Under the pieces are notes generated by a model. It had not been told where the DNA came from. It made no database searches and saw only the letters and a program-made list of their open reading frames with translations. 64,000 bases of DNA from Octopus vulgaris. Lineage: Eukaryota. A program made the position numbers and the translations under genes. Numbering within the stretch: the stretch's first letter is position 1; each line of letters opens with the position of its first letter. Shown here piece after piece: positions 11,052-47,506 of the stretch. Location of the stretch: assembly GCA_951406725.2 (NCBI GenBank), contig OX597814.1:66278001-66342000 (forward strand). The letters run 5' to 3'.

Positions 11052-11217
11052 TAGTCCTTTCTATTATAGGCACAAAGCCGGAAATTTGGGAAGGGGGATA
11101 GTCGATTATATCGACTCCAGTGTTTCACTGGTACTCAATTTATCGACCCCGAAAGAATGAAAGACGAAGACGACCTCGGCGGAATTTGAACTCAGAACGT
11201 AACGGCAGACGAAATAC
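11052..11217 (-). mobile_element. SINE family A, 3' part (split by Tx1 LINE; 5' head at 16537-16600)
   Basis: Variant of the family core gccgaggtcgactttgcctttcatcctttcggggtcgata on the minus strand; continues in register after the LINE. Confidence 0.88.
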
Positions 11218-11466
11218 GAATTTCTTTATTGCCCACCGGGGGCCAAACATAGATATGGACAGTACAACTGATGGGATCAGTAAATCGATATGATTTTACA
11301 TAAATGTGACATCAAAAATAAAATACAATACATAAAAATCGAATGGAATACACAGTACAAAAACAATACAAATGAAGCGATGATCAAGTTACGCTCCGAT
11401 CCCACAAGCACCGATCTACCGCTGATACCTTTTTATTTTTCCTTTTATTTATTTTTTTTTTCTCGT

Positions 11467-14400
11467 CTATTCACACGGTTCCTTGCACGCACAACACTCG
11501 TGCAACATACTTCCATCTCTTTTGGAACGTACACTCTGACAGACACCTCTTCTCTTCAAATGAAAAGAAAAAAAGGATCGTAAATTGTCACCAGAGATAA
11601 AGTTGCCTGTCTTAATTCCTTTTATCCTAGTCTTCCATACAGCCTCTTTTGCTATTGCTACAACCGTGAGAAAACAATTCTTACCTTCGTTCGTTAGAAC
11701 TCCCGGTGGGTCAATTTTTATAATTGACTCAGTCGACAGCCGTACTCTTCCTTCGCCGGACAACAGATGTTCAGCATAAGCCCACATAAGCCCACATTTC
11801 AGTTATCTCCGGACACTGAACAATAGCGTGAGGGACGGTTTCCCTGTCCCCCCCGCATCTTGGACAGGTCGGCGACTGACGTTTACCATGTCTTGCGAGC
11901 TTATCCCAAACGGGCAAGGCACCTCTGTAGCATTGCCAGGTTAAGGACTTTTGGAAGTTGTCCAACGTTCTCAACCCGAATGTACGATGAAACAAGCTGT
12001 CCAGTTGAATAAATCCGAGACCTAGAGTCGACCCCAGGCCATCGTCGCATTCAGACTCTACCAACCCACTATATAAAATCCGTGTGGAACCCCCACCGCT
12101 GGCGTTGCCCGAGCGCCGGAACAGCAAGAGGGCCTTACGGCACTCTTTATGCCACTCACTCGACCTCGGTCTACGAGAACACCAGGCTTCCTGTTCGCAA
12201 AAACTCTTGAACTCAGGGAACATTTGTCTGGCCAGCGGAGACCACACCCGTTCACTATCCAGGAGAATCCAGAGGTGCCTCAACCTCAACGCATGTCTGC
12301 GCATCATTAACCAAGGCATCCCTAAACCTCCATTTAAAGGCTTTTGACAGCAGACAGAGCGTTTCACAAGTGGCGACCTGCCCTTCCACAAAAAGCGAAA
12401 GAGCTGTCTCTCCAACCTGATCAACCACGAATCCGGACAGGGCACGACGGTCAGGCGGTAGGTAATGACCGATGCGATAAACACATTGGCCACTTCCGCC
12501 CTCCCTTTCAGGGATAGCCACCGCCAAGACCAGGTCTTGACTACTGCAGCCACCCTGCTCAATACCTCCGTCCAGTTCTTCTCTATCTGGAGGCCTGGTC
12601 CAAACCAGACTCCCAGCAACTTAACCGGTCCCTCCGTCCAGCGCCTAACAACACTGTCTGATGGCATCGACTTGCCAACCCAGGTGCCGAGCTGCAAGCC
12701 GACCGACTTTTCCCGGTTAATCTTTGCTCCTGCTACCTCCTCGTAAGCCTCAATAGTCTTACCTACTTCACGTAGGCGTGTCACTGTGGTTACACTGATA
12801 GTGATATCATCCGCGAAAGCCGTAACAAACTCCTCTAGTCCTGGTTCTCTCGGGATGCCACTCAACCTTTGCAGTAATGGCTCGAGAGCCATCACATACA
12901 AAAGTGGTGAAAGCGGACATCCTTGACGAACCGAGCGTCTGATGCAGAACGGCTTCGAAAGGAAACCGTTCACCCGAACTATCGAGTCAATGTTGTGGTA
13001 CAAAGCGATAAACCACCTGAGGAAGCCAAGGCCCAGGCCAAACCGCGCAAGTACAGTCGCTAGGTATCGATGGTCAACCCTATCAAAAGCTTTAGACTGG
13101 TCCAAATGCACCAACGCCCCACCTTTGCCAGATTTATTACCAAACCTCTCTATGGTATAGCGAATAAGATGGAGGGTATCCTGAATGGTTCTGCCTGGGA
13201 TGGCACATGTCTGTGCCTCCCCGACTATACCATTCACGACACGCGCCAACCTTTTTGCTAGAACCTTGGCCAAAATCTTCACTTCTGCGTTTAACAGAGT
13301 GATGGGCCTGAAATTCTCTAGAACGTCCCCCTTGTCCGGGTCCTTTCTGACCAACGTCACTACTCCCCGGCGCACAGATCTGGGGATAAACCCATTCTGT
13401 TTCCAGTTCGCGTACACGTCAGTCAGTAGTTGCCCGAACAAGTCTGGCATACATTTATACAGCTCGTACGGAAGACCATCAAGTCCCGGTGACTTACCCG
13501 CTTTACAATCAGCCAAATCCTCCATCACCTCCTCAGGTGTGATTGGCCCTTCGCAAGACTCCGCATCCGACCCCGAGAGGCACGGCAGCCCGGTAAGAAA
13601 GTCCTCGAGGGCTCTCCCACCACCAGGACCGCCGTCACCCCCGAACAGCTGGGCGAAGGACTCCCGAAAGACCTCACACATTTTCTCGGGTTCGTTTATC
13701 AAGACACCATTTTGATTCGTCAAAGACCGAATAGAGGAACTATTTCCTTGCCGAGCTTCCACCACTCGGGCCCATCCAGCGGCTTTGATTCTTTCACTTC
13801 TCATTGCACGTAACTTAGCTCTGGTAATACTTCCCATGTGGTGGGCTTCAAGATGCTGGTTTAACTCCAGTCTTTTCACCCTCGCTTGGTCTGTATTACC
13901 AGTCCTCCAGGCTTCTTCTAGTTCCTTAACTAGACCATCTCCTATTTTACGTCCCTTCTTAGCTAAACTTATGCTAAACCTAATAGACTCATATTTGATG
14001 GCTCTTTTTAGGGCGTACCACCATTTGTTATTAATGATGGTACCTGTTAATGCCCTCTGTATTAACATCTTGATCCGCTTTCTGTACTCCTCAATCGCCA
14101 AAAGGGACGTATTGAGTTTCCAGTAGCCAGATCCCTGTCTATGCAACTTATCTACCGTCAGTTTACAGGTAACCATCTTGTGGTCACTGTAGCTGACTAG
14201 AAAAAACTGTGGACACTCAACTATGGACTTATCTTTTTCTCTAATTAAAATCCTATCTAGATATGTTCTGGTAGACCCGTCACTATTTGATCACGTCCAC
14301 TGTGGAGTGTTCGGGTGCTCCAACCTATATGGATCTGCTAGCTGAAATTGACTTAGCAGATCCCGAAAGCCTGGGTTACATTTTCTGTTCATGTTCGAGT

Positions 14401-14866
14401 TTGAGCCAACACAATCTGTGTGTGCTGCACATATTGTATTAGAGTCTCCTAACACTACTAGTGAATGCGACGTGGCTAGGAACTTTCCTAGGCCACGAAA
14501 ATATTCAGTTTGCGGGCCAATAATGTTTGGTGCGTAAATAGCGACCAGCCTGATTGTCTTGCCACAACTGAATGTCAAGTCGAGAACGACCAGCCTGCCT
14601 TCTGGGTCAGAAAAAACCAACTTTTTCTCGGCTACCCGGTTTCTTTTTAGTAGGACCAACATTCCACCCCCACCTCCTGCCCGACTCGGAGAAACGTATT
14701 TCTCGTAGCCGTTCAGGAGGGGGAGCAGATCTCTTGGCCCCTTCACCCGGGTTTCCGTTGCAACAATTACATCCAAATTTCTCGACCTGATGTCATTCAG
14801 AAAGCATCCTTGCTTCCAGCTTGACAACAGGCCATGAACATTTAAACAACCAATGTGAATAGCCAT
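11467..14866 (-). pseudogene. Tx1-type ORF2 (APE endonuclease + reverse transcriptase + C-terminal Zn motif), two visible lesions
   Basis: GCLNVHGL, ATETR, SDH, GYWKLN, PGLDGLP, RPITLLN, LDQSKAFDRV, RQGCPLSP, AFADD, CPRC…H…C; in-frame TGA at 14291-14293; 10-bp tandem duplication (cataagccca, 11775-11794). Confidence 0.93.
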
Positions 14867-16396
14867 CACTTACCCTCCACCTTTTTTTGATCCAGGGTCG
14901 GAGGTGGACGGTCTTGGGAAATAGATTTGTCAAAATCCCGTCTCACCACCGACACAGAGTTATCAGGTGGAGGGGGAATCTCCACCTTTTCCTTTTCTCG
15001 CGGGATCGAAGCTGGTAATCCCTGAAATATCGACTTGTTAAAATATAATCTCAATGAAGATACAGTCTTTCTGTACTTATTTTGTAGAATTCTATAAGTC
15101 TTATTTGAGACTTCATATATGTCGTAATTGATAAATTCCTCTGAAAGGTTATCAATTTTTTTACAGTCTTTATGAGTTGAATGTCTCTCATGAGCTCAGT
15201 ATCTTTAGTGTACACAGCTATTATGCCTTTTTCTTCTTTTTCTCTTCTGGCAGTCTTTTTTGGTCGTTGTTCTGTAGTAGTCGCCACTCTCGGTTGGGTT
15301 GCTGGTTGTATTTTTCTTTTGTTTGTTGTTTTTTCCTCATCTGTTTCTTCTTTATCTTCTTCCTCTTTGTCTTTTTTCTCCTCTTCCTCCTCTTCATTTT
15401 CCTTGCAGTTCCTTCGAATGTGGCCTAACTGACCACATAAAAAACATCGAGGTTTTCGGCCCTCAACAAACACCACGAGGTTCTCCTCCCCTACCTCAAT
15501 TGTCTCAGGAATTGTTTGAATTATTTTAGGGTCCGCTTGAATGAGAAGATTAATTGTTTGACCATCCCAGCGTGGGTTTTCCGTAGCGGTAGCCTGGAGG
15601 AGAGTAATTTTTTCTACCTCTTTGATTAGGACTGCCGCCAACAACCACATAGGTTCGACCTCTGGCGGGACCCTTGTAATTTTTATTCGCGACGTCCTCA
15701 TCCCCATATAATAGGGAATTAACTCCACGTCGTTTGTTTTCAGCGTTTCAACTGAGTTCTTGTGTGCTATTTCTTTATTGGTGAACCTTACTTCCACCGT
15801 TCCGAATTTTTTCCTCTTCTCAGAAATACTACGTCGCCCAATATTGGCTTTAAGCACTTTTCTATTTTCTCTTCTGACATTCTTTCAATTTTTCTTTTTT
15901 GTAGACAATATATTTTGAAAATTATTGTTTTTTGCTTTTCTTCCTGTAATAACTTTTGCGGAGGTTCAATTTTCACACCGTTGTCAGTTATTTCCATCAT
16001 TTTGCTGTATTTCATAATTTCGCTTTTATTCGTCGACAGTATCTGGGTTCCACCCCCAGCAGCCAACGCAAAACTTTTTTTTCCATTTTTTGGTTCTATC
16101 TGGATGCTAGGCACATCAATTATTCTCTTCGACACAATGCCTTTGTTCTCTGGCAAAGTCGGAAACTCTTCTGGTGAAAGTTCTGACGAGCTCTCAGACA
16201 CATCTCCAAAAATATCAAATATATTATCCTCTCTGCTATTCCTTCTTGTAGCGGGGGAAACCCCTATTTCCTTGTCTGTATTTGGCTCCTCGCCGGACAT
16301 GTATTTCCTCCTCTCAACAGGAGAAACAAGTATTTCTGCTCCAACGGTAGGCTCCATGCTAGACGACATTCTTCCCCCCAAAGGGGGAATGAACAA
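14866..16396 (-). pseudogene. Tx1-type ORF1 (Gag-like, CCHC knuckle), frameshifted
   Basis: FGTVEVRF, RIKITRVPPE, CFLCGQLGHIRRNC, K/E-rich linker; three frames (15788-16396, 15051-15857, 14866-15054). Confidence 0.88.
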
Positions 16397-16536
16397 TGCG
16401 TGCTACCACAAGCACTAAGTGTTTTCAATTGAAAACTCCAACAGTTAAGTTATTCAACAGTTTACCAAGAAACAACAGTTGTTAACAATATTAACACCAC
16501 GAAACAGCAATTCTTACTTCACGAACACATGTGCGA

Positions 16537-16600
16537 CAGACGAAATACGGCTACGCATTTCGCACCATGTTCTAACGTTTCTGCCAGCTCGCCGCCTTAA
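16537..16600 (-). mobile_element. SINE family A 5' head (other half of the interrupted SINE)
   Basis: Minus strand taaggcggcgagctggcagaaacgttag…gtatttcgtctg. Confidence 0.85.
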
Positions 16601-16666
16601 TAATAATAATAATAATGATGATGATGATGATAATAATAATAATAATAATAATCCTTTCTACTATAG

Positions 16667-17756: not shown

Positions 17757-17775
17757 AATAATAATAATAATGATG

Positions 17776-17839
<64 letters not shown>

Positions 17840-17880
17840 TGATAATAATAATAATGATGATGATAATAATAATAATAATG

Positions 17881-17929: not shown

Positions 17930-17930
<1 letters not shown>

Positions 17931-19658
17931 GGCCACTTTCCAGAAAGGGAAACTGAAGACCTCACATTCAGTGGTGTTGGATGTTGACACAGTCATAAAA
18001 GAACTCGAGCAGGAACAAACTTACAAGTACCTCGAAATAAATTAGTGTTATGGCATTCAACATGCAAGTATGTAAAAGAAGATTAGGTAGGAGTGTTACA
18101 GGAGAGTTCGAGCAGTCCTAAAATCCAAGTTAAATGCATGTAACAAGATGTTAGCTATAAATTCCTCAGCAGTTTCGGTTATTTAGTTTCAGTATGTTGA
18201 ACTAGAATATGCGCGAAATAAGGAAAATTGGCAGGAAAATCCGTAAGCTGCTGATTTGCAATAAGATGCACCACCCAAAGGCAGACGCAGATCGTCTTTA
18301 CCTACCCGAACTCAAGGAGGTCGAGGCTTGATCCAATGTGAAATTTCCTACAAAACCACAATTTGACTAGCAAAATATCTTGAAACATCTAACGACTGGA
18401 TACTAAAGCTCGTTGAAAACCATGAAAGACATAAGAAGCTACATTCTGTTATGAAGGAGAGCAAAAAATTTTCAGGTGAGTTAATGCATAATACCCAGGC
18501 TGAACAGTAGAGGGAGGTGCAGCAAATGTAGTTGCAAAGAAGATGAAATCAATAGCAAATCAAAATGCGCTTGAACAGTTGGCTGATAGTTGGGAACAAA
18601 AATCTCTGCATGGCAAATATGTGGCCTGTAGCAAACAAGCTAATGTAGACCAGAAGCACACACATCAGTGGCTACGGAGCTCAATGCTAAAGGCAGAGAG
18701 TGGAGGCTTTATCTTGGCTGCCCAAGATCAGAGCTTATTGACCCAGAACTATCAAGTCAATGTGATGAAAAATGCTGTATACCCAAAGTGCCGATACTGC
18801 AACGATAGGATAGAAACAGTCGATCACTTAATCTCTGGATGTAAGGTTTTAGCACCCGTAGAGTACAAATCAATACATGATAGAGTTGACTAATATATAC
18901 AATGGATAAGGCGGCGAGCTGGCAGAAACATTAACACGCCGGGCGAAATGCTTAGCGGTATTTCGTCTGCTGCTACGTTCTGAGTTCAAATTCCGCCGAG
19001 GTCGACTTTGCCTTTCATCCTTTCAAGGTCGATTAAATAAGTACAAGTTACGCACTGGGGTCGATATAATCGACTCAATCCGTTTGTCTGTCCTTGTTTG
19101 TCCTGACTGTGTTTAGCTACTTGTGGGTGTTAAAAAAATTAGAGCAAATAAACCAGATATTGTTGTGAAAGACAAAAGCATACCCTGTGACCATAACATC
19201 TCGGCAAAAGAATTTGATAAGTTCAAATCTACTAAAGATCTGCTAATCGAAATCGAAAAGATGTGGCATCTCAAGACGGTTACAATACCAGTGATTGCAG
19301 GAGCACTTGGAATTATCAAAAAAAGGAACTGAAAATTATTTAACAATCATCTCTGATTTACCATTCATGCAGGAAGTGCAAAAGTTTGTCTTAACTGGTA
19401 CGTCACACGTACTGAGAAGAGCATTGTCGCTGTGAATTTTCTTTTCTTTTTCCCCTTTATTTTATGTTTACTTTTCTATTTTTAATTTTTCTGTTTCTCT
19501 CTGTCTTCCCCTTTACTCTATCGCCTGACTCTATAAATGAACAATCTGGTGTGTTCGTTTTCATGGGTGATAATGTATACAGTTCGTTTCTCTGCCCTAG
19601 GTGTCAGGAAGACACTCGGCAAGAAATAGAAACAGAATCGAAAGAAGATGCTAAGGAA

Positions 19659-21194: not shown

Positions 21195-23137
21195 TACTGG
21201 ATGCTGTCAGTGTCAAGACGTTATTTTTTGTGAGAAAGAGTGTGAAAAATTGTAGAGAAAGACATAATAAGATCGAATCGCGCGAGGCGCTTGCCGCTAC
21301 TTGTCGTTACTTTTTTTTAGAAAGAACGTCGACCCTCCGTCATGGAGACATATGCGAGGGTTACCGCAACGAGAAATGGCGCGTCGCTTGTGAAAAGAAA
21401 TGTAACGTTTAAGACGGAAGAAATGAAGAAATATGAAAAATACGTAAAAAGGGAGGGTGAAAGCGTCAAGCTGATCCCTCCAGCAGAAACAACGAAGGAG
21501 AGGAACAACAAAACGATTACATACAGGATACAGGATAGAAACTCGAGGAAATTAACACGAATATCGGTAGAAGATATAGAAAAGTGTCTTGGAGAGATAA
21601 TGGATAAAGCGACATACGTAAGTAGAGGGAAGAAGTATGGTACGGTAGAAGTGAGGTTTGCCACAAGTGAAGAGGCGGCCTCGCTATCTTCCGCTGTCCT
21701 AAGAGCGGAAGATTTCACAATGCTACCAACATACAAAGGAAGACGAGGCAAAAGGATTAAGATCCCAAACATACCGCCGGAGATAAAAACGGAATGGCTG
21801 GTGACAGCCATTCTAGGGTCGGCTGAAGACGAACCAGAACTGGGGTCTATTACAGAAACCAATATTGTGAACTGGAAGGAATTCAGTGTCGAGTTGCGGC
21901 TGATGGCCACAATAGAAGATATTGAACGAGTTCCCTTTCAAATAGAAGAGGAAAACGGATCAACAATTAGCGTAATTGTAGAAAGAAGACCGAATTGTTA
22001 CTTGTGTGGAGCGAGAGGCCATATAAAGGCGAGTGCCCATTATATGAATTTACAGTGGAGAAAGAAATAGCAGAAAAGGAGCAAAATAAGACACAGAGTG
22101 GAGAGACAACAGAAGAGGAACAGAGAGAGAGGGGGGAAAAAAGAGCAGGAGAAAGGGAAAAACAGCGCACTAAAGGAGAAAGAAGACAAGGAAAAAGAAA
22201 CAACAGAAAGGCGAAAAGAGAAAGGAAAAGGCAGTACGCTGAAGGAAAAAGAAACAACAGAAAAGGAACAAAAGATACAAGGTAGAGAAACAATAGAAAA
22301 AGAACTAAAGAGAGAACAGAGACAAGAGAAAGGAAAAGGCAGTACACTGAAGGAAAAAGAAAACAAGGAAAAAGGAACAACAGAAAAAGAACAAAAGACA
22401 CAAGGTAGAGAGACAACAGATAAAGAACTAAAAATACAAGAGAAAGAGAAAATCAGCACACTGAAAGAAAAAGAAAATAAGGAAGGCAAGAAGAGAGAAA
22501 GAGATAAACCAAGGGAGGAGAACAAAGAAGCAACCAGTCCTAAAAGGAAGACAAGAGAAATTACAGGATGGAACTGGCATTACAGATTCTATGGAGCATT
22601 TGTAATACACAGGACCTGCCCTGAAATGATCGAAATAATAAAGAGAACAAAAGGACATTCATGGGTTAGGATGGGAACCGAGTTTGAAAAAGATGAAACG
22701 GGTGCTCTAATCCATGAGGACAGTGTCGATGGGTTTATCGAGGCCGCCGGAGAGAACGTGATAGACCACTGGATGTGCCGATTGGTAGAGCGTCCAGATC
22801 ACGTGGATCATTACGATCACCTGATGCACAAAATAGAACTTATCTAAAAGTGTTAAAAAAGAAGGACTCTGTTAGCGAAATGTATTTCGAGATTCTGTGG
22901 AATTTTTGTATTGTAAGATTTTGTGGATTCAGTAGTAATTTTTGGAAAAACCATTGGACGAAATGTAACCACCCGATTTCGGGAATCGAGTGGGCATTGC
23001 ACCGCATTGTAATATCTTTTCATGACTCATTATTTTTTAAAATTTTCTTCGTCTTATTTCATCCGCTTTTATTATTTTTAAGTTCCCCGATTCTATCGTC
23101 CCCATCTATGTTCAGTCCTTTATGGACAATAAAGAAA
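21195..23137 (+). mobile_element. ORF1-only non-autonomous Tx1-related retroelement (HAL1-like, ~1.95 kb) with TSD
   Basis: TSD ttctaagccatttaggt at 21178-21194 and 23138-23154; single ORF1; 3' end cccatctatgttcagtcctttatggacaataaagaaat matches the LINE 3' ends; no ORF2 remnant recognised. Confidence 0.88.
21342..22847 (+). pseudogene. ORF1 (Gag-like, CCHC knuckle, K/E tandem repeats, ~90-aa C-terminal region); two 1-nt frameshifts in homopolymers
   Basis: GKKYGTVEVRF, RIKIPNIPPE, CYLCGARGHIK/GEC; shifts at ~22025 (aaa) and ~22135 (ggggggaaaaaa). Confidence 0.82.
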
Positions 23138-26100
23138 TTCTAAGCCATTTAGGTCACTAATTTCACTTGAGTAAAACAGACATCACTCTTTCCTAATTAA
23201 TACACTCTACCGTAAAACCGCAGGTTTTTAGCACGTAATCAAAAAGAGAAAAAAGTTGTAGAGTGTGACTAATGTAAGAATTAACTACCTCAAGCAAATG
23301 CAGTGACCCACGTCGAATATCCCCTTTATTCTTGCTCTTCGTGGTTAACAGGAATTGCTCCACAAGTGTTTTTGAGAGCGATTAATTGTCGGAAAAATTA
23401 CAAACTAAATACATAACTTTAATTTATTTCGTAATTCTACAGTCTGTGTTCAATTTCTACCAAAGCGGTATTTATCATTTGGAAGTATTTATCATTGAAT
23501 AATACAAAGAACAGATTCTTCTGTCCATAGACAAAGATAACTTTCTGCCTAAGCAATGTTCTATTGTTTTCAATACCGCAACCATAGATAAATTATTTTA
23601 ATTAAAAAATATATTTATCTCTTTCTTGAATTATTTTTTTATTCACTAAATATTTTATTGCAATACATACATACTTTTTTTTTGTAATATTGCTGAAGAA
23701 ACGGAAATTTGACACCTGTTTTTCTTTTCAAAATTCAGCGGTAAATTATCACGTGACTTAAATTGGGTTGTACTTTCATAAATACTACATTTGTCAGTAA
23801 TGATTGTATTTCTAGACTTCAATGTCACTGCTTTATATATATAACCGCAATTAATATCTAGAACCTTCAATAGTCGAAAGGAAATTGATTTTACTTCGAT
23901 GGATATTGATGATATTGTATGCGAGTTTGAAATTGGTTTCGATCAAGTGGTAGGTGTTGTCTTTTGCTCTTAACTATGTAACGACCGTATAGAAAAAAAA
24001 ATTGTGTCGAATGGGCTAGTAATTTCATTTCAGTTTCCACTTATTCACCTTTTATTCATTGTTTTATAGCCTTCCATGAATACATCTCTTTTAGGTGTAA
24101 TTTGCTAAATTTAAAACTTAAATACCATGTCCTGTATTATAGTTTTTAAAGTATGCTTCAGAAAATCAAAGGTTTATTAAACTACCCGTAAAATTCAAGT
24201 TTGCTTTCAACAATTCTCTTATATTTACTTTTATGAGTACATTATATATGCAAACCATTTTTTTTTCTTATGTCTTGCTATATTGCCATGTATTGAAAGA
24301 CAGGAATGGTTTTGGGTGTTCTTTTAATCTTATAAATTGTAGTACTTTTGGCATTTTGTATTAAAATGTATTAATGATATTTTGTAAGGTTATCTTCTCA
24401 CGCTAACAGCCAGTCTTCAACGAATGGAGCCTTAACTGCATAAGCGTATACCCCACATCTTTGTTTCCCTATGACTTCCTTTAAAATGCTATTGTTCCGT
24501 AAAATTTTCCGGAGATATATTCAAATTTATCTTCATAAAATTTAAAAACCTTAATCGTAGTGCATCCCATAGAAAACGTATCTATGGAAAATTTCTTTTA
24601 AAAAGTGTTTAAGAAATACATGAGGAAACAAGGTATGCAGGGCACACTTTTTAGTTACGCTGAATTTGAAATATACGTGTAGCAGTTTTACTTAAGTTTT
24701 TACAATAATGATGTAGAGTTAAAGGTGGGCTCCAAGGAAGAAGGTAAAGCGAAGCATTTTCAATTCCCGATTAAATGTTTACCACTTAGCGGCATTTAGG
24801 GGGCAGGAGAATGGATGTCACACTTCTGAATTTCGAAACCTACCCAGTGTTCTATATCAAATCTGCTATCTTTGCTGTCACGTTTTCTTTTTTTTTTTCC
24901 CCCCTTTTTGTTCCACTTGTTTTCAAATCGAGAGTACTGATAAAGTTTTCTATACTAATTCTGAAGATGAAATTCATTTTTACCATAAATGAATGAATAA
25001 AAAGTCAATGGCTTTTAAAGTTTGCAAATTTTGGGTAATTTTAGTCGAAAGCTACGGGCACATTGATGCCGGTTTCCATTGTAACAAGCAAGCTGTTTAC
25101 TATAAGCACCTAAAGCGCTAAAAACTACCACCACGTGTATTTTTTTTGCCTGCGTATTTTCTTTGACGAGTGACTATTTTCTGAACTTCCGTTTTTGAAT
25201 TGTCGTTACAAAAAATGTACTTTGTTTACAAGAACTGAACTATTACTACACTATAATATAGTTTCTTTTTTCTGTAATTTTTCTTTTTTAAATAATTTAC
25301 TTGCCTATTCAATCGTTTGAACCCTTACCCTACACCCTAACTTTAACCTTAAACACTAACGTACATTTTTTTTGTAATTTTTCGCAAAATTTCGTTTTTT
25401 CCTTTTGGAATTATTTACATATCTGTTCGATCTTTTCACATTATTTCAGTCCTTAAAACTTCAACTTTTGTCGTTGTAATGTTTTGCTTTTATTTTATTA
25501 AATAAAAATTCATCGTTGTAATGTTTTTGATTTCATTCTGTAATAAATAGGCAGCTATCACGTAGAAAATACCAGATTCCAAATTCTTTCTTTTTTTTTT
25601 TTTTTTTTTTTTTTGCTGGAGTAAAAATGATCAAACTTTAAATCTCTAACGTTTTCCTAAAATTTTTCTGGAATAAGTGTATAACAATCAGATTCAATGT
25701 GAAAAATTATGCTAATATTTGAAATTTGAAAATTTTCACTTTATTTTAAAATTTCAAAACTTGTGATAGCTACAGATAATAAACCTGATTGAACAAACCT
25801 ATGATCAAAAGCATTCCACCCATGCCCACTCCAGTTGGTACTTAACACAAAAAGCGCGACGGGCCACAATCGCGGCCGTCAGGTACAGGTTGACAGGCTA
25901 CGATCGAGGCCTAGATAGATGCATTTACTTTATGGGCATTTGTTGGAGTCTAATGTCGCTCAAACGCTCCGATACTCCACCACCCACCCACCCCCAGAAT
26001 GCAAGAGGGCTAATAGTTCAACTAATGACTTCAGATGATGTAAAACTTGCCACCATTATATACAAAGAAGATATTTTAACTTTGATAAACGTCAAACTTT

Positions 26101-26584
26101 TAGGAGTGTTGTTACATCAATAATTCCGTTTCTATTATAGAGTGAAACACATTGTCTACCTTTTTCTTTTTTTCTCGGTGTTGGGGTTCTCCGCAGAAGT
26201 ATTACCCATTTGTAATCATTAGCCGTCATAAGCGGTTTGTGTTCCTTATATTAAGCAACACTTTCTACTGGTACTTATTTACAGCCAGATTTGTATCATT
26301 CAGTGTAATTTGCTGGGACGCACTACGAATTTTCACATGTCACAGAGGGCAAAAAGGAGGGGTCCTCAAACTTGATATCTGATAAAAAAAATTCGCAACA
26401 GAATGGACGGTGTAGTTTAGTTAAACTGGGTGATAAATCTACCATGCAAGTAGACTATGGCCGAATTTGAAATCAGCATAACAAATACCGCAAAGCAACC
26501 TGTCAAATGTTCTTACACTTCTCACCAATCCACCAACATGGTTTTTTATCAACTCCGACAGAATGAAAAGCAAGGTGAACTCCA

Positions 26585-27119
26585 TATTTCTTTATTATGA
26601 TTATACAATCGTTACATAGAAGGACAAATACAGGACATACATGCAAAAAACAGTTAGGAGGTTCGATTAAAAATTTTCCATAACATTTGGATTATTCATT
26701 ATAAAAATTCGTCTGTAAATTGTCCTTTACATGACCAATAGAATATTATAACATTACATAAACGTTCGATCTTACCGAAGTTTTAAACCCCGGCAATTTA
26801 TAAGGCCCCGCAGCTTTTGTTTCCTCTCCTCCCTCCATAGTTAAGCTGGGTTTCTGACACCCACCTTTTTTTCCACTTCCTTCCATATTTTCTCATACAC
26901 ACCCCGTGGTAAGATCCTCTTTTCCAGCCCCATTTTGCTCTTCAGATGATATCTGAAGTAAGTGAGCAAGCCGGGGCCCGAGACAAAGGATCCTATCGCG
27001 ACTCCTTCCATTCTTGTTCGCCACATGCATTCTTTTACTACTGCAACCGTGCAGTGAAAACATGCCTCACCTTCCTTCGAGAGTCCAGTTGGCGGTATCA
27101 TCTTAATCGTAGACTCAGC
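26585..27119 (-). mobile_element. 5'-truncated Tx1 LINE 3' fragment with 17-bp TSD, inside a degenerate SINE A
   Basis: TSD aagcaaggtgaactcca at 26568-26584 and 27120-27136; peptide …VAVVKECMWRTR…SGPGLLTYFRYHLKSKMGLE homologous to the ORF2 C-termini; ends aataaagaaata. Confidence 0.9.
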
Positions 27120-27702
27120 AAGCAAGGTGAACTCCAAGAATTGAACTCAATGTGCTGAGATATATATATATACTGCGCAGTATACTAACCGACGCCCTTT
27201 ACAACTCTACCAGTTCGTCGCCAAGTTGGCATTGCAAAACGAACTTCAACCGGCACCATTGTTTTTTACCCTGGCCACGGCATCACTCGTCAATGGGATT
27301 TGATAGACGGAAACTATCATTCATTCATACATACAATTTACGATAAACACTCTATCATTTGTTCCAAACAGCGACAATGGTGAAACGTACGTAGGAAAGA
27401 ATAATATAAACCTGTTCTACATTTGCTCTGCATAACTAGTAATACTACTAAGTAGGTTGGTTGCTCAACTACTAGGATCAGATTGAATGATGATAATCTA
27501 CGTAGTGCTCTAAACTTAACAGTATCAGTCGTATATCTTTTTGTACACACAAGATACAGTATATATAACGGTTATGTATATTTCAACGAGGAGACTGAAA
27601 AACCAATACTTTAGAAAACAATATCCCGAGCAGTTTTTTTTTTTTTTCCGTCGAGTTACAGTTTCTGGTCCCTTGCACTTTTAGAAATATAGTGAGCCGG
27701 TG

Positions 27703-32668: not shown

Positions 32669-33350
32669 GTAAGTTTTTCTAAAGTTTATTATATTTATTA
32701 TTGAATTACATGAGCCGTCATCTCTGTACCAGTTCCTTGATAAAGACGCTTCAAGTATTCATCCCTCATGCTTCTCAAATAGCCCAATCCATCTTGTTTT
32801 AAACATGCGCCACCAATCGAACACTGTACAAATGAGTTCCGGTATTGGTATAATAGGTTAAGGAAATCTGATTGCTTAGAATAATTGATACTAGCACAAG
32901 TAAGGTACTTATTTTCATTGACCTCATAAGACAAGCAACGACAATCCTCGGCATGATCTGAACGCGGTATATATGTAATATTTGCCGAAAAGCTACTACA
33001 AATGCTATAGTTTCCTTATCTTTCTATAGGCTCTTGTGTTAATTCATCTTCTCTCATTAATAAAATTTGCGTTAAATGACCTGAAAAGTAAAATTACTCT
33101 CAGTCACTTGAAGTGATGAAAACTGGAATAAATCCCAACACTCTTTGTCTTCAAAATCATGGATTATATGATTGATTCTGCAAATTAATTGATAAATGTC
33201 ACTGATACAAACGTCCTTCTGATTTCATTTTTCGTGTAATATAATATTGCATGATTCTGCCGAGGTTGACTTTGCCTTTCATCCTTTCGGGGTCGATAAA
33301 TTAAGTACCAGTTACGCACTGGGTCGATATAATCAACTTAATCCGTTTGT

Positions 33351-36300
33351 GAAACCACCCCTCCCAGAGTGAACTTAAAAAAGAAAAGAGAGTCGATGAA
33401 CTCGTATATGGCCGTTAAGGCATCAAATAACAGACTTGGAAACGTACTGGCAGCTATGGCCAAAGTGGAGAGAATAGGGAAAAAGAACGACTATGTAGTT
33501 TACAGGATAGGCCGGAAGGATTACGGACGGATAAAATCCGAATTCTTCCATGACGTAGGCCCACTTAGAATGGATGTGACATCTCCACATATATTCGAGG
33601 GCCTACGTCAGACTCCCCACGAGGCCCTGAAAAAGAGTTAAACAAAGAAGAGAAAGAGAAAACCGAACCACTGATATAAAGGTAAGTAATGGATTACATT
33701 TATGTTGGTTGTTTGAATGTGCGCGGCCTGGGAGCAGGCTGGAAGCAAGGTCGCTTCCTGCATGATATCAGGTCGCGTAATTTAGATGTTATTGTTGCTA
33801 CAGAAACCCGGTTAGAGGGGCCAAGAGGTCTACTCCCGCTGTTTGACGGCTACGAGAGTTTTTTCTCTCCTGGCAGTCCTACTGGCGGAAGTGGGGTGTT
33901 GTTCCTAATAAAAAGAAACCGGGTTTCTGAGAAAAAGTTAATTTTTGCAGATCCAGAAGGTAGGCTGGTCGTCATGGATTTGACGTTCAGTAACGGTAAA
34001 GTTATCAGACTGGTTGCAATTTACGTACCCACCCATACAGGGCAAAGTGATTATTTTCGTGAACTAGAAAACTTTCTTAGTACTTCGCATTCATTAGTTG
34101 TGCTAGGAGACTTTAACACAATTTGCAAAGCGGATGTAGATTGTGTTGGCTCGCGTTCAGATAGAAAAGGTAACAGTGGCTTCATGGAACTACTAAGCCG
34201 CTTTGAGCTAGCAGATCCTTATAGGCTGGAATTTCCGAACGCTCCATTGTGGACATGGTCAAACAGCGACGGATCTTCCAGGTCATATTTAGATAGAATA
34301 CTAATTAGAAAAGTAGACAGAAAAATAGCTAAGTGTCCACAGTTTTACCCGATCAGCTACAGTGATCATAAAATGGTCACCTGTAAGCTTGACATAGATA
34401 AGGTTAAAAATAGAGGATCCGGTTACTGGAAACTTAATACGTCCCTTTTGGCGATTAAGGAGTACAAAGACCGGATTAGGACTATAATTCAGAGGGCACT
34501 ATCTGGTACCATCATTAATAATAAATGGTGGTACGCCCTCAAACGAGCCATCAAGTTCGAGTCAATTAGATATAGCATAGGAGTAGTGGCTAGAGAGGCT
34601 AGGAGGGAAACTACTCTAGTTAAGGAATTAGAGGAAGCCTTGAAAACTGGCTCTGCGGCTCAGGTGGCGTCCAAGAGACTGGTGTTAAACCAGCACCTCG
34701 AGGCCAAACACATGGGCTGCATTGTCAGGGCTAGGATCCGCGCAATAGGATGTGAAGGAATCAACGCCGTGAGATGGGCCCGAGTGGTGGAAGCCAAGCG
34801 TGGTAACGATGCCACGATTCGATCTTTGACGAACCAACAAGGTTAGTTGATAAACGAACCCGAGGAGATGTGTGAGGCCTTTCAGGAGCACTTCGCTCAG
34901 CTTTTCGGTGAGTGCGGCGGACTGGACAGGAGGAGGGCCTATACGGACCTACTCGATGGGCTGCCGCGCTTATCGGGGCGAGATGCGGAGGGCTGTGAAG
35001 GGCCAATCACGCCTGAGGAGGTGGTTGAGGCAATGGCGGACTGCGGCGCGGGCAAGGCGCCGGGTTTGGATGGTCTACCCTATGAGTTATATAAGAGTAT
35101 GCCAGACTTGTTCGGGCACCTACTGGCGGAGGTCTATACGAACTGGCAGCAGAACGGGCTCATACCCAGATCTGTGCGCCGGGGAGTAGTGACACTCGTC
35201 AGAAAGGACCCGAGCAAGGGGAGTGCATTGATAATTTCAGGCCCATCACTCTGCTAAACACAGAGTTGAAGATTTTGGCCAAAGTGTTATCGAAAAGATT
35301 GGCGCGTGTCGCGGATGGTCTGATCGGGGAGGCACAGACATGTGCCGTTCCGGGCAGAACCATTCAGGATAATCTCCATCTAATGCGGTACACTATAGAG
35401 GGGTTTAATAACGATTCTGGCAAGGGTGGGGCTCTGGTCCATTTAGACCAATCTAAAGCATTTGATAGGGTCGACCATCGTTACCTGGTATCTGCTCTGG
35501 CACAGTTCGGGCTGAGCCTTGGCTTCCTCAGGTGGATTATCCAAATTTATGATAACATCGACTCGGTAGTTCGGGTGAACGGCTTCTTGTCGAAGCCGTT
35601 CAAAATCAGACCTCCAAATAGAGAAGAATTGGGGCGAGGTAACGAGCAAGGTGGCTGCAGTAGCCAAGACCTGGTCTTGGCGTTGGCTATCCCTGAAAGG
35701 GAGGGCGGAGGTGGCCAATGTGTTTATCACATCGGTTATCACCTACCGCCTTTCCGTCGTTCCTTGCCCTGATTCGTGGTTGATCAAGTTGGAAAGACAG
35801 CTCTTCTACTTCTTGTGGAAGGGCGGGAAACCACTTGTGAAACGCTCTACTTGCTGTCAACAACCGTTAAAGGGTGGGCTAGGGATGCCTTGGCTGATGA
35901 TGCGCAGACATGCGCTGAGGTTAAGACATCTGTGGCTCTATCTGGATGGTGAACGGGTGTGGTCTCCGCTAGCAAAACTGATGTTTCCCAAGTTCACTAG
36001 TTTCGGTGGATGGGAAACCTGGCTGAATCGTAGATCGAAACTTGGTACTTGGTACACGGAGTGTCGCAAGGCTCTCCTGCTAGTCCGTCGCTCGGGTAAC
36101 GCCTGCGGTGGGGGTTCCACCACATTCTTCTATAGAGGGTTGGTAGAGGCGGAATGTGAAGATACCTTGGGGGAAACCCTAGGTCTCGACGATAATCAGC
36201 TGGCCAGTCTGTTCCGACGTACGTTCAAGCCGAAGACACTGGACAACTTCCAGAAGTCTCTGGCATGGCAATGCTACAGAGGAGCTCTACCTGTTCGGGA

Positions 36301-36984
36301 TAAACTCGCAAGGCACGGTGGCCGAGACAATCCGATATGTCCAAGATGCGGGCGGGACAGGGAAACCGTCCCGCACGCTATTGTTCATTGTCCGGACGTG
36401 TCTGAGGTGTGGGTTTATGCCGAACAGCTGTTGTCAAGTACACGAAGAGTACAGCTGTCGACTGAGTCGATTACAAAAATTGACCCACCGGATTTCCTCG
36501 CGAATGAAGGTAAGTTTCGTTTTCTCGTTGTAGTAGCAATTGCGAAAGAGGTGATATGGAAGACGAGAATGAAAGGTCTACAGTCAGGCAAGTTCATCTC
36601 CGGCCCTGGTTTGATGAATTATTTCATCTTTCACCTGAAAAGGAAGATAGGGCTGGAGAGAATATGCCTGACTAAGAGAGTGTATGAAGAACGATGGAAA
36701 GATGTAGCACGAAAGTTGCGAGTGAATGATACAACATAAATGTAAAACCAAACGAAACCAAAAGTATCAGTGGGGAGGCGGGGCTCGTGGGGTCAGAGCT
36801 AAACCCGCACCCACTCCACCCGTAATGTCTTCCGGTCTGTTCCAACATTCGATTTCTTGCTATTTTTGTAAATTTCTGTAAATTTTTAAAATTCGCTTTT
36901 TTGTAAAACCCATTCGTGTGTCTGACCCCATCATCAGATTGTATTGTCCCATCTATGTTCGCCCCTAGTGGGTAATAAAGAAAT
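33351..36984 (+). mobile_element. 5'-truncated Tx1 LINE (ORF1 tail + ORF2) with 16-bp TSD
   Basis: TSD aacttaatccgtttgt at 33335-33350 and 36985-37000; ends gcccctagtgggtaataaagaaat. Confidence 0.95.
33689..36739 (+). pseudogene. Tx1 ORF2 pseudogene (stop, frameshift, ~345-bp deletion removing QGCPLSP-FADD)
   Basis: Colinear with 11467-14866; stop at 34844-34846; shift at ~35230; deletion junction KPFKIR|… at ~35610. Confidence 0.92.
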
Positions 36985-37512
36985 AACTTAATCCGTTTGT
37001 CTGTCCTTGTTTGTCCCCTCTGTGTTTAGCCCTTTGTGGGTAGTAAAGAAATAAATATAATATTGCATAACTTCAGATTTGTTATTCAGACACTTAAAAA
37101 GTTCCACCAAAACTGATGTTCATCGCAGCTTTTTCAATTGTTTGTCTGTGAGAGTCAAAAGGATGATTCAACAATAAAGTTTGACCCACTTGTTTTGCTC
37201 AGTTCTTTGAATTAATCCGAAACTTTATCGGGTGAATAAAAGTCAGGTACCTCCACCAGAACTTTTGACTTTATTGTTTGAATTCTTGGCCATCTCTATC
37301 AGATGTAATTGAAAGATAATATATAAGGTGTGACTGTGCAAAGAAAAGTATTTCATGTAAATCCCTTTGTTTGATACATAAGCAAATCAAAAGAAAACAA
37401 TTTCCGTAAAAAATAGGAACTGAGGAAATTATGTTCGTTTATTTTATTAATATTTGTTAATTTGAAGCTATGGCCTAATTAATCGAAACTTCATTATTTC
37501 ATTTTTTTTCAG

Positions 37513-40657: not shown

Positions 40658-40796
40658 ATTTAGGGTATTCGAACTCAGTCAAAACAAATCAGCATTAGGA
40701 ACTTGAACTTCTAATAGTTTCACCCTGCAATCTTCAAGTTTGCTGATACACCATTGAAATGACCATTGAAAAGAGGAAACATCTTGCTCTTGTTTG
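40658..40796 (+). repeat. Local direct repeat, copy 1 (copy 2 at 42308-42467)
   Basis: atttagggtattcg…ctgatacaccattgaaatgac near-identical in both introns flanking exon F. Confidence 0.85.
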
Positions 40797-41243: not shown

Positions 41244-41391
41244 AGAACGCATTAAAGAAAGCTGTAGTCAATTAAGAGTACTACTACCATACGTAAGAGG
41301 CAGGAAAACTGACATGGCGTCCATTTTAGAATTAGGTGTTAGTTACATAAAAGTAGTCAACACTATCTTACCACAAGAATTACAGTCTCAG
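41244..41391 (+). CDS. SOHLH2: SOHLH2-like exon F (helix-loop-helix)
   Basis: tttccag|A…CAG|gtaaaa; RERIKESCSQLRVLLPYVRGRKTDMASILELGVSYIK closely resembles the vertebrate SOHLH2 bHLH (recalled as KEKLRRERIKxCCEQLRTLLPYVKGRKND). Confidence 0.9.
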
Positions 41392-42887: not shown

Positions 42888-43057
42888 ATTACAAATATTC
42901 TCAGTAAAGACTACGTAGTGAAAGAGAATACAATGAAATGTAATCAGCCGAATATGGCATCATCCAGAGAAACAACGGCTCCGGTGCAAAAAGTTATCAA
43001 AACAAATAAAGATCAAGATTACACGTCGAATAAACTAACTCCAGTCTCCGAATTTGG
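42888..43057 (+). CDS. SOHLH2: SOHLH2-like exon G
   Basis: attgcag|ATT…GG|gtattt; ITNILSKDY…VSEF; phases 0 to 2. Confidence 0.78.
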
Positions 43058-43924
43058 GTATTTTTGCTGTTTCCTGTCGCTTTTTTTTTTTCATTGTACT
43101 TACATCCAATAACATTCTCTGAAAGCCACAGCTGTATCGGACATAATTCATACAGAAGGTAGTTCGTATCTTTCCATTGATCTTGTGCGGTTTCTGCTCT
43201 GAAAGATGCTTAAATCTCAATGGCCCAGTTTACTTGTCAGTAAATAGCGTATGTCACGACTGTAAGAACTATCAAGAGTAAAACTGAGTACTTTTGTGAC
43301 ATGCATGTCCTAGTTCAATTTCTGCCGTCTTATTTCAGGAGGAGGGTTTGGTCGAAGGATTTCAATCTATCAAGGTAAATCGCACAAGTATACAAAAAGC
43401 TATTAATGTGTTTGTTGGAAAAAAAGACGAAGATAAACATGCTCTAGCGCAGCGGCGAAATAGTTATTAGCGTTCTAGTTCATGGATCGGGATTTCAAGT
43501 CATCTGCTACCATGTTGCGTTTCAGATCTTTTACGAGCCTTAGTTCACTAATGAGTTGCAGATAGCTGACTGAATATGAAGTCGGTCTACTAATGAATGA
43601 ACTAATAGTGTATAATCGCATGAACGTTATACAATCTATTTTAACTATGAGACAGAAAGATACAAACTGTTAATATCTCTGAACATGATATGAAAACTTC
43701 TGTGGATGCTACCCAATTTAGTTGAAAATGAATACCATGAATAAATACAATTCATATCGAATTAATAATATAGATGCAGGATCATCTCATGTTTCAGTGC
43801 TAAGTTCAAATCCTCCCTTGAGCTTTAGCCATTGTTAAACAATTTACTTCGCATACGAGTTAGAAGCCGTTATTCTTATTCTTTTTTCTTATTGTTTATC
43901 CTCTCTCTCTTTCTCTCTCTCTCT

Positions 43925-43976
<52 letters not shown>

Positions 43977-45492
43977 CACACACACTAATTCCATTTGTCT
44001 AGCCATGAAGAACAAGTACAACGGCTCGATACAAAAAGTGTGTCCAATAATAGTTCGGCAAATGTTGCAACGTCACCAGTCAAGAGACCTAATTACGAAA
44101 TGGATGGAACTACAAGTTCTAAGTACCTGGAGACAAATGGTGAGATCCTTTACTAATTATGCTATAATTATTTTATATCCCATAAAATAATTAATGACAT
44201 TTTTATATATGGCGGTGCCCCAGCAAAATGGCGGTGCCCCAGCATGGCCACAGCTCATAAGCTGAAACTGGAAAAATCAAAATCATATGTGTATGGAGTG
44301 GGGGTTAATGCCTTTAAGTAATATTTCCAGGGGTTAACATGTGAGTAAATGATTTCTTACATTGAGAATATAAAACATAAGTTTGCTTTTCATCACCAGC
44401 GCTGCTTTTATTCCAGAGGCAAAAACGCTTAAGTTTTTCTTGTACATAATTGTTAATAAGTGTTAATCTGGGCTGACAGAATGTGATATAAAATTATATG
44501 AATCGCTTTATTTTTTCATAAAATTACAACAAAAAGTAATCAGTGATGTCTCTACTGAGGCATTACAATTTTACCTTTCGGTATCGTATTTTTTAACAAA
44601 TTAAAACAAAAATTATTGTTAACCCGGGTGTTCCAAACATGATGATCAATTTTTTTAGGCATAGTATACCTAGAATTACATTATCCAATGTGTCCCTCCT
44701 CTATAAAAAACAATATAGAATTATACTTTACTGTCTTTCTAATAAGCAGAAGAATATACTAGTTATACTAATCTTAGAATGTAATAAGAAATTATCTGAA
44801 TCACTTTATTTTTTCCTTAAAAGTATCAACAACCAGTTAAAAGTTCCCTTGTTGGTTCCTACATTAAAAATTGAAACGGGTTGCGGCTGAAGTGTATTTT
44901 TAAATACATAAATATCGATATAATAATACATACTAATGACTAAAACGAATTGGTTTCAAATTTTGACACCAGACCAGCAATTTCGAGGGAGCGCGTAAGT
45001 TGATTACATCAACCCAAGTGTTCAACTGCTACTTGTTTTATCGAAAGGATGAAAGGCAAAGTCGACCTCGGTGGTATTTCAACTCAGAACATAAAGTTAG
45101 ACAAAATGCCGCTAATAATTTTACCCGGCGCTTTATTTTGATAAATCAGTATTCCGTAATGAGTTATGCAGAAAAAAATTTCCAAAGCACAGCCAATTTC
45201 CTAATATAGGTATTAACAGTATACTTCCAACCGCCTTTCATCTAATATACAAGCTTTATATGTTCATTAAAGTCAAACCAAAGGTTCTAATACCCAAAAT
45301 AGTATTGAACAAGACTATATACTCATTAGGAATTTACATGCCAATCCTGTCGGAGTTACCTTGTCATTGGTAAAAAATAAAATACCAGTAATAAACTGAA
45401 AATTATCTTTCTTCTGAGCGATCTTTGAATCAGCTTTCCATTGTTAATCAAACGCATTAATTTTTATTTGTTTCTTCGAATCCTATTTATAG

Positions 45493-45716
45493 TATGCTAT
45501 ATAAAATAACGTGCCAAACACTTTCAGATACACATCTACAATATGCTATCCGTAAAGAACCTCGATTAGAAATGACTGGAACTGCAGAGAGTGACGAAAT
45601 AACACTTCTTGAATACAAGAAAAACTTCAAAGATCATTCCATTCCCAGTCGACTGACCACCACTGTCTCAACAAACTCGAAACCTATACAAAGTGGCATT
45701 TTAAATCCAGAAATCC
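45493..45716 (+). CDS. SOHLH2: SOHLH2-like exon H
   Basis: tttatag|T…C|gtaagt; GMLYKITCQ…LNPEI; phases 2 to 1. Confidence 0.72.
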
Positions 45717-45879
45717 GTAAGTATTTCAATGATTTATTGACATAAATCATTAGTTAACACGTGGCGAAGACATGTAATGACACGATACAGTCAACTTTAT
45801 CAACTTTAATGCTCATCTAGTGCTTATTTGGTCGGTTCCTGAACGATGATAGATACAGGGTACCCAGGAAAGATTTGAA

Positions 45880-47204
45880 ATTTCGTGGGGACAAGTGCGG
45901 TAATGGTTATGAGACATATCAGAGGCCTACTGTTGGATTATGCGGTTAATTCTTATTGTGTCGTCTGACACAATTTTCTCTGTCTCAAATTCGCTGTCTC
46001 ATTTTCATTCTTCTGTCGTGCTTCTTCTTCCTTACTGGTTGAAGGCAACGGTTCCTGAGTTCGCATTTTACTTGATTTTTTCATTTGATTTTTCTTTTCT
46101 TTCTTCTCTTCTTCGTTTCTTTTTCTTTCTTCTCTTCTTCGTTTCTTTTTCTTTCTTCTCTTCTTCGTTTCTTTTTCTTTTTTTTCCTTGGGGCTTTTAG
46201 GTGGTGATTCTAAATTCTTTTTTCTTTTCACCACCGTAAATTACTCGTCCATTTTCTCCTCTGCTACAACTGTACTCTCTTCTTGGATTTCTGTTTCTAT
46301 TATTTCCTCCTCGTGTTTCTGGGGACACTTGGCCTTCATGTGTCCCCTTAATCCACACGCAAAACATATTGGAAGTCTAACCTCCACAACAATCCTTAAT
46401 CTGGTCTCGTCTGGCAACACCAGCTCTTCCACAATCTTGTGGAGGTCTGGCAGCCTTATATGGACTATTGATTCTAGCCCGTATCCCTATCAGTTCATCT
46501 CCGTAGTCTTTGACATTTTAAAAACTTCTGCTTCTTCCTCTGTATGATAGAGTATGGCTGCCACCAGCCATGCCTCGTCAATTTCAGGGGGCATTCTACC
46601 TATCCTTACTCTGGTCGCACGTTTGCTACAGTAAGTAGGTAGTATTGCCCACTCCGCTGATTTCAAGGCTACAGTGGAGTGCTTTTTTGCTTCATTTTCG
46701 TTTGCGAAGCGCACCTCTATCGGCCGAACTTCCGTCCTCTGGTGTAGAAGGTAGTCGATTCTGTCACCTCTTTCAAACATCCCTCTACCGCTTCTACGGC
46801 TGCTATCTCTACTTTCTCCGACGCTATGTTTAGCGTTCTATAGATGATAGTTCTCTTTTCCGTATTCTCAATAACTTCTTTGGGAGGCGTCAGTCTGAGA
46901 CTGTCTCCCTCCTTTCTCAACAAGGTGTTGTATTTCTTGAAGTCCTTGTCTTTGACTTCTATTTCATGGACCTGCAGTAGCTCCGCTGACAGGCTTTTGC
47001 CAGTCACTGCAGCATAACTGCCTGTTTGCAATTGTCTATTCTTCGTAGTAATGTTCTTCGCAACTTCGCCCATAAATGGGGAAGACAAATAAAATTTCCA
47101 ACAAATTCAAGTAATAATAATAATTCAACAATTCAAGAAATAACAGGTTAACAATAACGGAACTCACATGTAGCGTACACACTTTCTACTCAAAAACAAC
47201 GACA
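45880..47204 (-). mobile_element. Tx1-related ORF1-bearing element, 3'-truncated, abutting a SINE A head
   Basis: SYAAVTG, RGRKFG/IEVRF, RVRIGRMPPE, CFACGLRGHMKAKC in broken frames; SINE head aaggcggcgagctggcagaatcgtt on the minus strand at 47205-47229. Confidence 0.82.
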
Positions 47205-47506
47205 AACGATTCTGCCAGCTCGCCGCCTTGGAAGGATAAGATTCTGAGTAGAAAGTATGTGCATGTATGATTAGTCAAGGCAACCAATAATACAGAAATA
47301 TTCAATTCGCATGTAACTATGTTAGATCTGTTTTCATCGGTTTGAAACTTTCAAGGTAATTTATAGTGGGGATTTTGATATTTTCGACCGTTTAAGTTCA
47401 AATCATGCTTATTGATTAAAATATCGATAACAAATATGAATGAGAAATAGATTTTTGTTTCTTTGTATTATTTTTTTTAATATTTTCTTTTTCTTTTAAA
47501 CTAAAG

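Follow-up and report, generated by a model that had tools for sequence, protein, structure and literature searches.

In a 64,000-nucleotide (nt) stretch of the Octopus vulgaris genome (contig OX597814.1, positions 66,278,001 to 66,342,000; hereafter the window), a long interspersed nuclear element (LINE) of a lineage named E1 was found within a copy of a short interspersed nuclear element (SINE), SINE A. Genome-wide, the E1 lineage inserts at one fixed base of this SINE, nt 50, in sense orientation and with a 13-bp target-site duplication (TSD), and sequence-specific targeting was shown to hold at the genomic level. Recognition of the sequence at nt 50 by the E1 endonuclease is the reading that we favour for the site choice, with a probability of roughly 0.8 on the sequence comparisons given below. 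All genome-wide searches covered the 2.8-Gb assembly, and the family of each element in the window was traced through the whole genome.

Copies of SINE A share a single type of head and core and end in one of two tail types, T1 and T2. Motifs resembling A and B boxes were recognized by eye at nt ~14-26 and ~76-87, and a free T1-tailed copy with G at nt 50 (18908-19139, plus strand) served as the numbering reference. The last 45 nt of T1 resemble a LINE 3' end: nt 187-232 matched the end of e3, another LINE in the window, at 81-86% and that of e1, the window copy of E1, at 79% over 34 nt; SINE A shares its 3' tail with these LINEs. The low coverage of SINE A noted initially stood, with the by-eye figure of ~5% corrected to a measured 3.77% of the window; coverage was 3.84% in 20 evenly placed 10-kb genome stretches (45 blocks). 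ARAGORN and Rfam gave no call for the SINE A head, and Rfam no U1 or U2 match on a full SINE A copy. The tRNA-derived SINEs of octopus were reportedly named OR1/OR2 by Ohshima and Okada in 1994, and we know of no report of targeting for them.

The window copy e1 (11219-16536, minus strand) is a full-length, 5,318-bp member of the young E1 lineage. It comprises an open reading frame (ORF) 1 with a CCHC knuckle and an ORF2 with apurinic/apyrimidinic (APE) endonuclease, reverse transcriptase and zf-RVT domains, and its coding frames contain stops and frameshifts. The 13-bp TSD (11206-11218 and 16537-16549) corresponds to SINE nt 50-62. Its upstream copy (16537-16549) lies inside the host SINE A head of nt 1-62 (16537-16598, minus strand), which includes the A-box-like motif and the C allele at nt 50, and its downstream copy (11206-11218) inside the host body that starts from nt 50 (11051-11218, minus strand) and holds the B-box-like motif, the core and tail T2.

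The DNA query used to collect E1 copies lacked the last 21 bp of the element and so did not reach the junction. Among the top 30 DNA matches of the young lineage, the 13-mer of SINE nt 50-62 followed directly after the tail in 30/30, always in sense, and the sequence ran on into the SINE in 29/30. With 11 added loci, these figures became 41/41 and 40/41, two of the 41 loci stemming from one local duplication. A pattern of the E1 tail only gave 75 matches genome-wide, and the first 30 examined comprised 27 running into SINE nt 50, one followed by the 13-mer only, one off-target LINE and one SINE tail. On the 5' side, SINE nt 1-62 abutted LINE nt 1 in 37 of 40 young loci, or in 28/31 when only loci not selected on their 5' end are counted; the three exceptions were a truncated copy behind a SINE head, a junction deletion and a copy without the 5' 1.1 kb. 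The 20 older E1 copies were split into 13 that ran into SINE nt 50, two with the 13-mer only, two off-target and three without tail. If an element counts as target-specific once over 20% of its flanks show a single target (PMC4494074, in the sections available), E1 qualifies in its young (41/41) and older (13/20) copies alike.

The same base is also entered by SINE A itself. An exact 29-mer in which a SINE tail is joined to nt 50 occurred 20,831 times genome-wide, often at 184-bp spacing, and the window holds a dimer (57558-57960, plus strand) of a T1-tailed nt 1-232 unit joined to a T2-tailed copy starting at nt 50. T1 tails stood at this site in 7/16 cases (7/17 in another count) of an unbiased sample plus the window. 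In a larger set of 212 T1 tails drawn from all collected DNA, and hence enriched by the search patterns, 87 were followed by nt 50-52, 24 by nt 17 and 97 by nothing, with an antisense neighbour in only 2/212. Adjacent array units were 9.8% apart (median, n=81) vs 10.7% between loci; slippage as the main source of the arrays was rejected, adjacent units being about as divergent as copies from different loci. Units ~10% apart that start at the LINE cut site point instead to targeted retrotransposition as the array seed. No doubled head was seen among 44 SINE pieces ending at nt 57-68, and first units headed by the C allele were followed by a G junction in 8/8 readable arrays (three were unreadable). 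Both observations fit an incoming cDNA that replaces the host head by pairing, and comparable cDNA pairing is known from the 5' junctions of R2. Self-insertion is a much larger effect on the SINE than LINE occupancy, as roughly 100 SINE pieces out of several hundred thousand contain the LINE; self-insertion shapes SINE counts and ages in this genome and offers a route of origin for SINE-derived tandem repeats.

Usage of the site turns on a single base. Perfect 25-mer free targets numbered 21,013 for the G allele and 17,209 for the C allele at nt 50 (C = 45%), whereas the SINE junctions numbered 20,831 and 197, respectively (C = 0.9%), so that this one-base allele alters usage ~87-fold. Between the older E1 copies and the derived young clade, the host allele changed from G to C: visible heads carried G in 5/5 older copies and C in 36/36 young ones. 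When 48 3' ends were placed in a tree, SINE-targeting copies grouped in one clade (100/100), within which 12 C-site E1 copies made up a derived clade (100/99) arising from among 25 G-site copies, the former being 2.0% apart vs 11.9% for the latter. Beyond the TSD, a G-type haplotype was present in 2/29 young-E1 hosts and 1/31 free C copies, as against 22/67 free G copies (p 0.009 vs young-E1 hosts), 14/24 old-E1 hosts and 25/58 SINE hosts; because the haplotype past the TSD follows the allele, the pattern reflects mostly host choice and not overwriting. C-headed and G-headed T1 SINEs and inserted first units were of similar age (8.7-9.2% pairwise) and the hosts of SINE insertions were older (14% pairwise), which indicates that the C allele was present while the G-directed wave ran, if perhaps in fewer available copies at an early stage.

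The preference was retained outside SINEs. Off-SINE insertions of the SINE started with N-R-T-A in 53/77 cases vs a 9% background, these letters were target-derived where the TSD was visible (15/24 listed), and the first base was C in only 2/77 (P 4e-5, or 0.011 with a stricter background). The endonuclease is the best explanation for a preference that depends on one base and holds even away from SINEs, and the available sections of PMC4494074 name the endonuclease as the main determinant of target choice in such elements. Relative to three older copies, the endonuclease of young E1 has Thr for Ser at position 202 and Ser for Phe at 143. Position 202 aligns with Ser202 of L1, which we take to lie in a DNA-contacting hairpin; residues 202, in a predicted hairpin loop, and 143 are candidates for the basis of the preference switch. 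The young E1 endonuclease (domain of locus L186; window 14291-14869) reads GDSN where L1, E3 and older E1 read GDFN, a motif beside the catalytic Asp/Asn. As to expression, the element is covered by contigs of four runs, and contigs cannot show start, strand or level.

According to the proposed mechanism, the nick by the E1 APE endonuclease would fall on the bottom strand where the duplication begins. The enzyme would loosely favour N-R-T-A-T-T, with N rarely C in the older lineage, and SINE nt 50 would supply the commonest ideal match. Target-primed reverse transcription from the shared tail would set the sense orientation. The tail-sharing SINE was likely carried into nt 50 by the same E1 machinery; in the case of a SINE RNA, the cDNA end would pair with the homologous host head and replace it, yielding arrays of the form [1-232][50-end]. 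The C allele would have been nearly immune to the older enzyme until the later E1 clade shifted its preference to C. Each LINE insertion would come to lie between the A and B boxes and would shut down its host SINE, with genes hardly harmed; with the two boxes separated, the brake on the SINE envisaged in the initial annotation is plausible.

The window contains a second family homing to SINE A. E4 is an ORF1-only, non-autonomous family with complete copies of ~1.75 kb, and its site is SINE nt 8-25; SINE copies are also inserted at nt 17. Its window member e4 (45880-47204, minus strand) abuts the host SINE A head of nt 1-25 that lies upstream (47205-47229, minus strand), as originally described, and proved to be a 3'-deleted copy of this family, not a truncated LINE. 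All eight relatives (at least 84% identity) that reach the 5' end come after the SINE nt 17-25 motif, and on the 3' side the SINE resumes at nt 8 in 4/6 copies with a visible tail; E4, like E1, thus exceeds the 20% threshold for a target-specific family. When an autonomous LINE was sought with a pattern for the nt 17 site, the 21 matches were all SINE tails, and the nt 8 pattern gave only two matches, both E4; the enzymes serving these two sites were thus not found by these pattern searches.

The remaining two insertions into SINE A behave differently. The 535-bp 3' fragment e2 (26585-27119, minus strand) belongs to a lineage other than E1 and has a 17-bp TSD (26568-26584 and 27120-27136) in a strongly decayed SINE A copy, its empty site giving only a weak SINE A match in sense (E 5e-5 to 6e-4). 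The 5'-truncated LINE e3 (33351-36984, plus strand), of a third lineage, encodes APE endonuclease, reverse transcriptase and zf-RVT domains; its 16-bp TSD (33335-33350 and 36985-37000) corresponds to SINE nt ~166-181, and it splits a 5'-truncated SINE A of nt 83-232 with tail T1 (33254-37054, plus strand). The 3' ends of e1, e2 and e3 are mutually 45-65% identical at the protein level, in keeping with the divergence noted initially. A fifth element (~21195-23138, plus strand), which is ORF1-only and non-autonomous, carries the shared tail, is flanked by a 16-bp TSD and lies outside SINE A. The four insertions co-oriented with SINE A were all confirmed by three TSDs and the e4 junction, and four of five elements in SINE A, all in sense, correspond to a post hoc binomial P near 7e-7.

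Genome-wide, E2 was found in SINE A in 1/28 distinct flanks, the one being the window copy, and E3 in 2/46, one being the window copy, so that neither exceeds the 20% threshold for SINE A. Sibling lineages with the same tail (62-71% identity) were found there in 1/38; in this control, two further low-ranking matches were counted as E1, one on the strength of the tree, the other of identity and position only. Siblings, E2 and E3 together, minus the two window copies, gave 2/110 (P 0.20 vs the 3.84% coverage). Set against E1, these background rates show that homing is single-site and lineage-specific and that e2 and e3 are strays. The suggested sense homing of the LINEs to SINE A, with an excess over genomic coverage, was hence far stronger than guessed for the e1 lineage (41/41 young copies) and the e4 family, and failed for E2 and E3. 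The further idea of region-directed rather than single-site insertion was abandoned, each homing family having one nucleotide-exact site (nt 50 for E1, nt 8-25 for E4); the variety of cut sites reflects the descent of the elements from four families, of which only two home to SINE A. Most E3 copies occupy a 14-bp site in another repeat of ~500 bp, in head-to-tail arrays.

Several results weigh against endonuclease recognition or against parts of the scheme built on it. The common tail and the common site are the only grounds on which E1 is taken to mobilise the SINE; this LINE-type tail is common to all sibling lineages and not to E1 alone, and the last base of the SINE differs from that of E1. 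About half of the SINE T1 insertions (9/16, unbiased sample plus window) lie off SINE sites, and 9 of 81 adjacent array units (11%) are less than 3% apart, near-identical neighbours by which local duplication adds to the arrays. The junction served to choose the rows of the 48-end tree, which therefore contains no off-target E1 copies, and locus L313 was put in E1 by identity and position only; counted as a sibling, it changes the control to 2/39. The TSD copies differ at 12/455 bases, above the expectation from LINE age. Two hosts have a common double variant that is found 20 times in the genome, and 2/36 C-headed hosts carry a G-type haplotype (P 0.02).

The last three observations also speak for RNA guidance, in which a LINE RNA with host SINE flanks would pair with the target, pick the site and overwrite ~25 nt, the allele 'preference' being partly inherited with the RNA. 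The LINEs of the two double-variant hosts are no longer sisters in a larger tree, and the G-type haplotype of the two mismatched hosts occurs in 73/17,209 free C copies. Such guidance would account for the near-universal precise 5' junctions (37/40), for host nt 38-49 being more conserved than in free C copies (4/396 vs 11/319, p 0.03) and for the C-headed first units followed by G junctions (8/8). However, host haplotypes outside the junction are those of the C subfamily, the off-SINE motif lies in target-derived TSDs that differ between loci, and the 5'-truncated young copy L371 is still in a C head, a state that a later deletion could mimic. We consider this explanation unlikely, with only hints that RNA pairing guides site choice; RNA flanks nevertheless likely contribute to 5' joining even if they do not choose the site.

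Tethering by RNA polymerase III (Pol III) factors, known from the TRE elements of Dictyostelium and proposed in the initial annotation, would have TFIIIC/TFIIIB fix the cut at a set distance from the A and B boxes, and all three used sites (nt 8, 17 and 50) do fall within the presumed promoter region. Against it stand the ~87-fold effect of a single-base allele and the array units without an A box, which still mark the same junction. A tRNA gene was at no junction, a weak test given four ARAGORN calls in the ~1.7 Mb examined. Moreover, the motif recurs in degenerate form at insertion sites that contain no SINE, so that tethering is not needed, and we regard it as very improbable.

Copying of a SINE-LINE-SINE composite as one unit, primed from the downstream SINE tail, would agree with the LINE-like tail of the downstream SINE and with the mostly full-length young copies. 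Full-length E1 copies (n=17) were 1.0% apart whereas their host SINEs were 9.8% apart, which makes the insertions independent, and the two sets of distances were uncorrelated (Mantel p 0.18; two loci with deleted hosts omitted, one locus not parsed). The tails of 36 E1 hosts were T1 in 28, T2 in three and unclear in five. With uncorrelated distances and both tail types among hosts ten times more divergent than the LINEs, the young LINE must have entered older, pre-existing SINE copies singly; composite copying is refuted for young E1 and its probability is negligible, the one exception seen being a local 6.45-kb duplication (C3). Random insertion with survival bias in harmless repeats is retained for e2 and e3, whose families sit at the background rate, and is refuted for E1 and E4, where it has next to no chance, since one nucleotide and one strand in 41/41 E1 loci are not explicable in this way.

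Built on endonuclease recognition, a LINE-SINE arms race is a more tentative view, to which we give somewhat less than even odds. The endonuclease would have been aimed at the promoter region of the exploiting SINE, and the SINE would have been made to self-insert in tens of thousands of cases, seeding the 184-bp arrays. A subfamily with C at the cut base would then have spread because it was uncut, and a new LINE clade would have targeted this escape allele, perhaps re-aimed by substitution at one or both of the candidate residues (Thr for Ser at 202, Ser for Phe at 143). If true, a parasite and its own parasite were likely in pursuit of each other, and the chase is recorded in one genome. 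The dated, within-genome series bears on the ways in which sequence specificity is acquired and altered in APE-type retrotransposons, and on whether LINEs are in direct conflict with the SINEs that parasitise them. As old and young endonucleases, both alleles and non-targeting sisters are all present, the one-base switch is testable in vitro.

The LINEs likely belong to Tx1 rather than to another L1-group clade. ORF2 matched the Pfam domains PF03372, PF00078 and PF13966, and the ORF1 knuckle PF00098 was located at window 15051-15884, with a 451-residue open frame in L186. The best solved relative of ORF2 is human L1 ORF2p (E 8e-64), with the catalytic positions aligned, and the nearest named relative is from Argonauta hians (62%); 5 of the 120 listed ORF2 matches were named, one automatically as 'Transposon TX1 uncharacterized 149 kDa protein' (34-37%).

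The closest precedent is the crocodilian pair of Tx1-Mar and SINEU (Kojima 2015, PMC4494074), which target Mariner-N4_AMi, the SINE head being derived from U1/U2. As far as the available text describes them, a LINE and the SINE that it likely mobilised hit the same target within a transposon, at fixed positions, in fixed orientation and with tandem insertions, similar to E1 and SINE A. However, a third element serves as the crocodilian target and E1 enters the head of its own partner SINE, and the octopus pair is set apart by its self-insertions, over 20,000 in number, and by the change of target allele from older to younger LINEs; identity of the two systems was rejected, with SINE A as the target and no U1/U2 head match. 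The same sections list Xenopus Tx1, in Tx1D, together with Keno (U2 snRNA) and Kibi/Koshi (microsatellites), which like E1 are of the APE type and enter a multicopy target at a single site defined by sequence. Their targets are DNA transposons, RNA genes and microsatellites, whereas that of E1 is a SINE depending on the LINE. What is new in comparison with the known systems is thus a LINE target in the promoter region of its own partner SINE. In the accessible part of PMC3446292, Zepp of Coccomyxa/Chlorella resembles E1 in that LINE-type elements pile up inside related retroelements, but Zepp nests in Zepp with one cluster per chromosome and the E1 target is a dispersed SINE. Head-to-tail multimers like the SINE A arrays are described for bivalve tandem SINEs (PMC11481361) and squamate SINE-derived satellites (PMC10702118), in the portions at hand. 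The former suggests unequal recombination between TSDs for the bivalve arrays, while SINE A units are ~10% apart and start at the LINE cut site. The parts consulted of PMC8967140 report L1-Tx1 and SINEs as abundant in octopuses with targeting unmentioned, and those of PMC3747384 provide clade background only. Full-text searches of the literature yielded no account of a LINE that targets its partner SINE, nor of such SINE arrays in octopods; Repbase, Dfam, subscription papers and supplements, which lay outside the scope, might hold the former.

Some further arrangements were noted in these families. At locus L379, an 85-bp piece (nt 14-98) of the host SINE downstream of E1 is tandemly triplicated, and in the older E1 copies L220, L294 and L303 the target 13-mer is followed by the 5' end of another element, which suggests stacked insertions at a regenerated site. 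Arrays of the main E3 subfamily have a period of 5.26-5.29 kb and up to seven units, with the 14-bp duplication between units (L031-L043; G000 C27:32.95-32.99 Mb, C3:34.85-34.87 Mb, C4, C12 and C19). The repeat targeted by E3 carries a decayed ORF1 fragment and a 3' hairpin plus CTAG, an end that is presumably Helitron-like. A recurring flank of E2 was rejected as target evidence, the copies (L084-L099; G000 C27:22.8-26.3 Mb and C2:14.65-14.72 Mb) lying in near-identical segmental duplicates with more than 1 kb of common flank. Rfam gave no match on 11 loci of other lineages. Other siblings have recurring 3' flanks of their own (L333/L335/L348, L343/L346 and L310/L316), hinting at further lineage-specific targets, with duplication as a possible alternative. 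Several ORF1-only non-autonomous families carry the LINE tail, often head-to-tail with full LINEs (window 21195-23138; L036:1-1525; L112-L123). Two ARAGORN tRNA-Ser calls in the window (55415-55498, minus strand, and 59291-59372, plus strand) are either genes or heads of another SINE.

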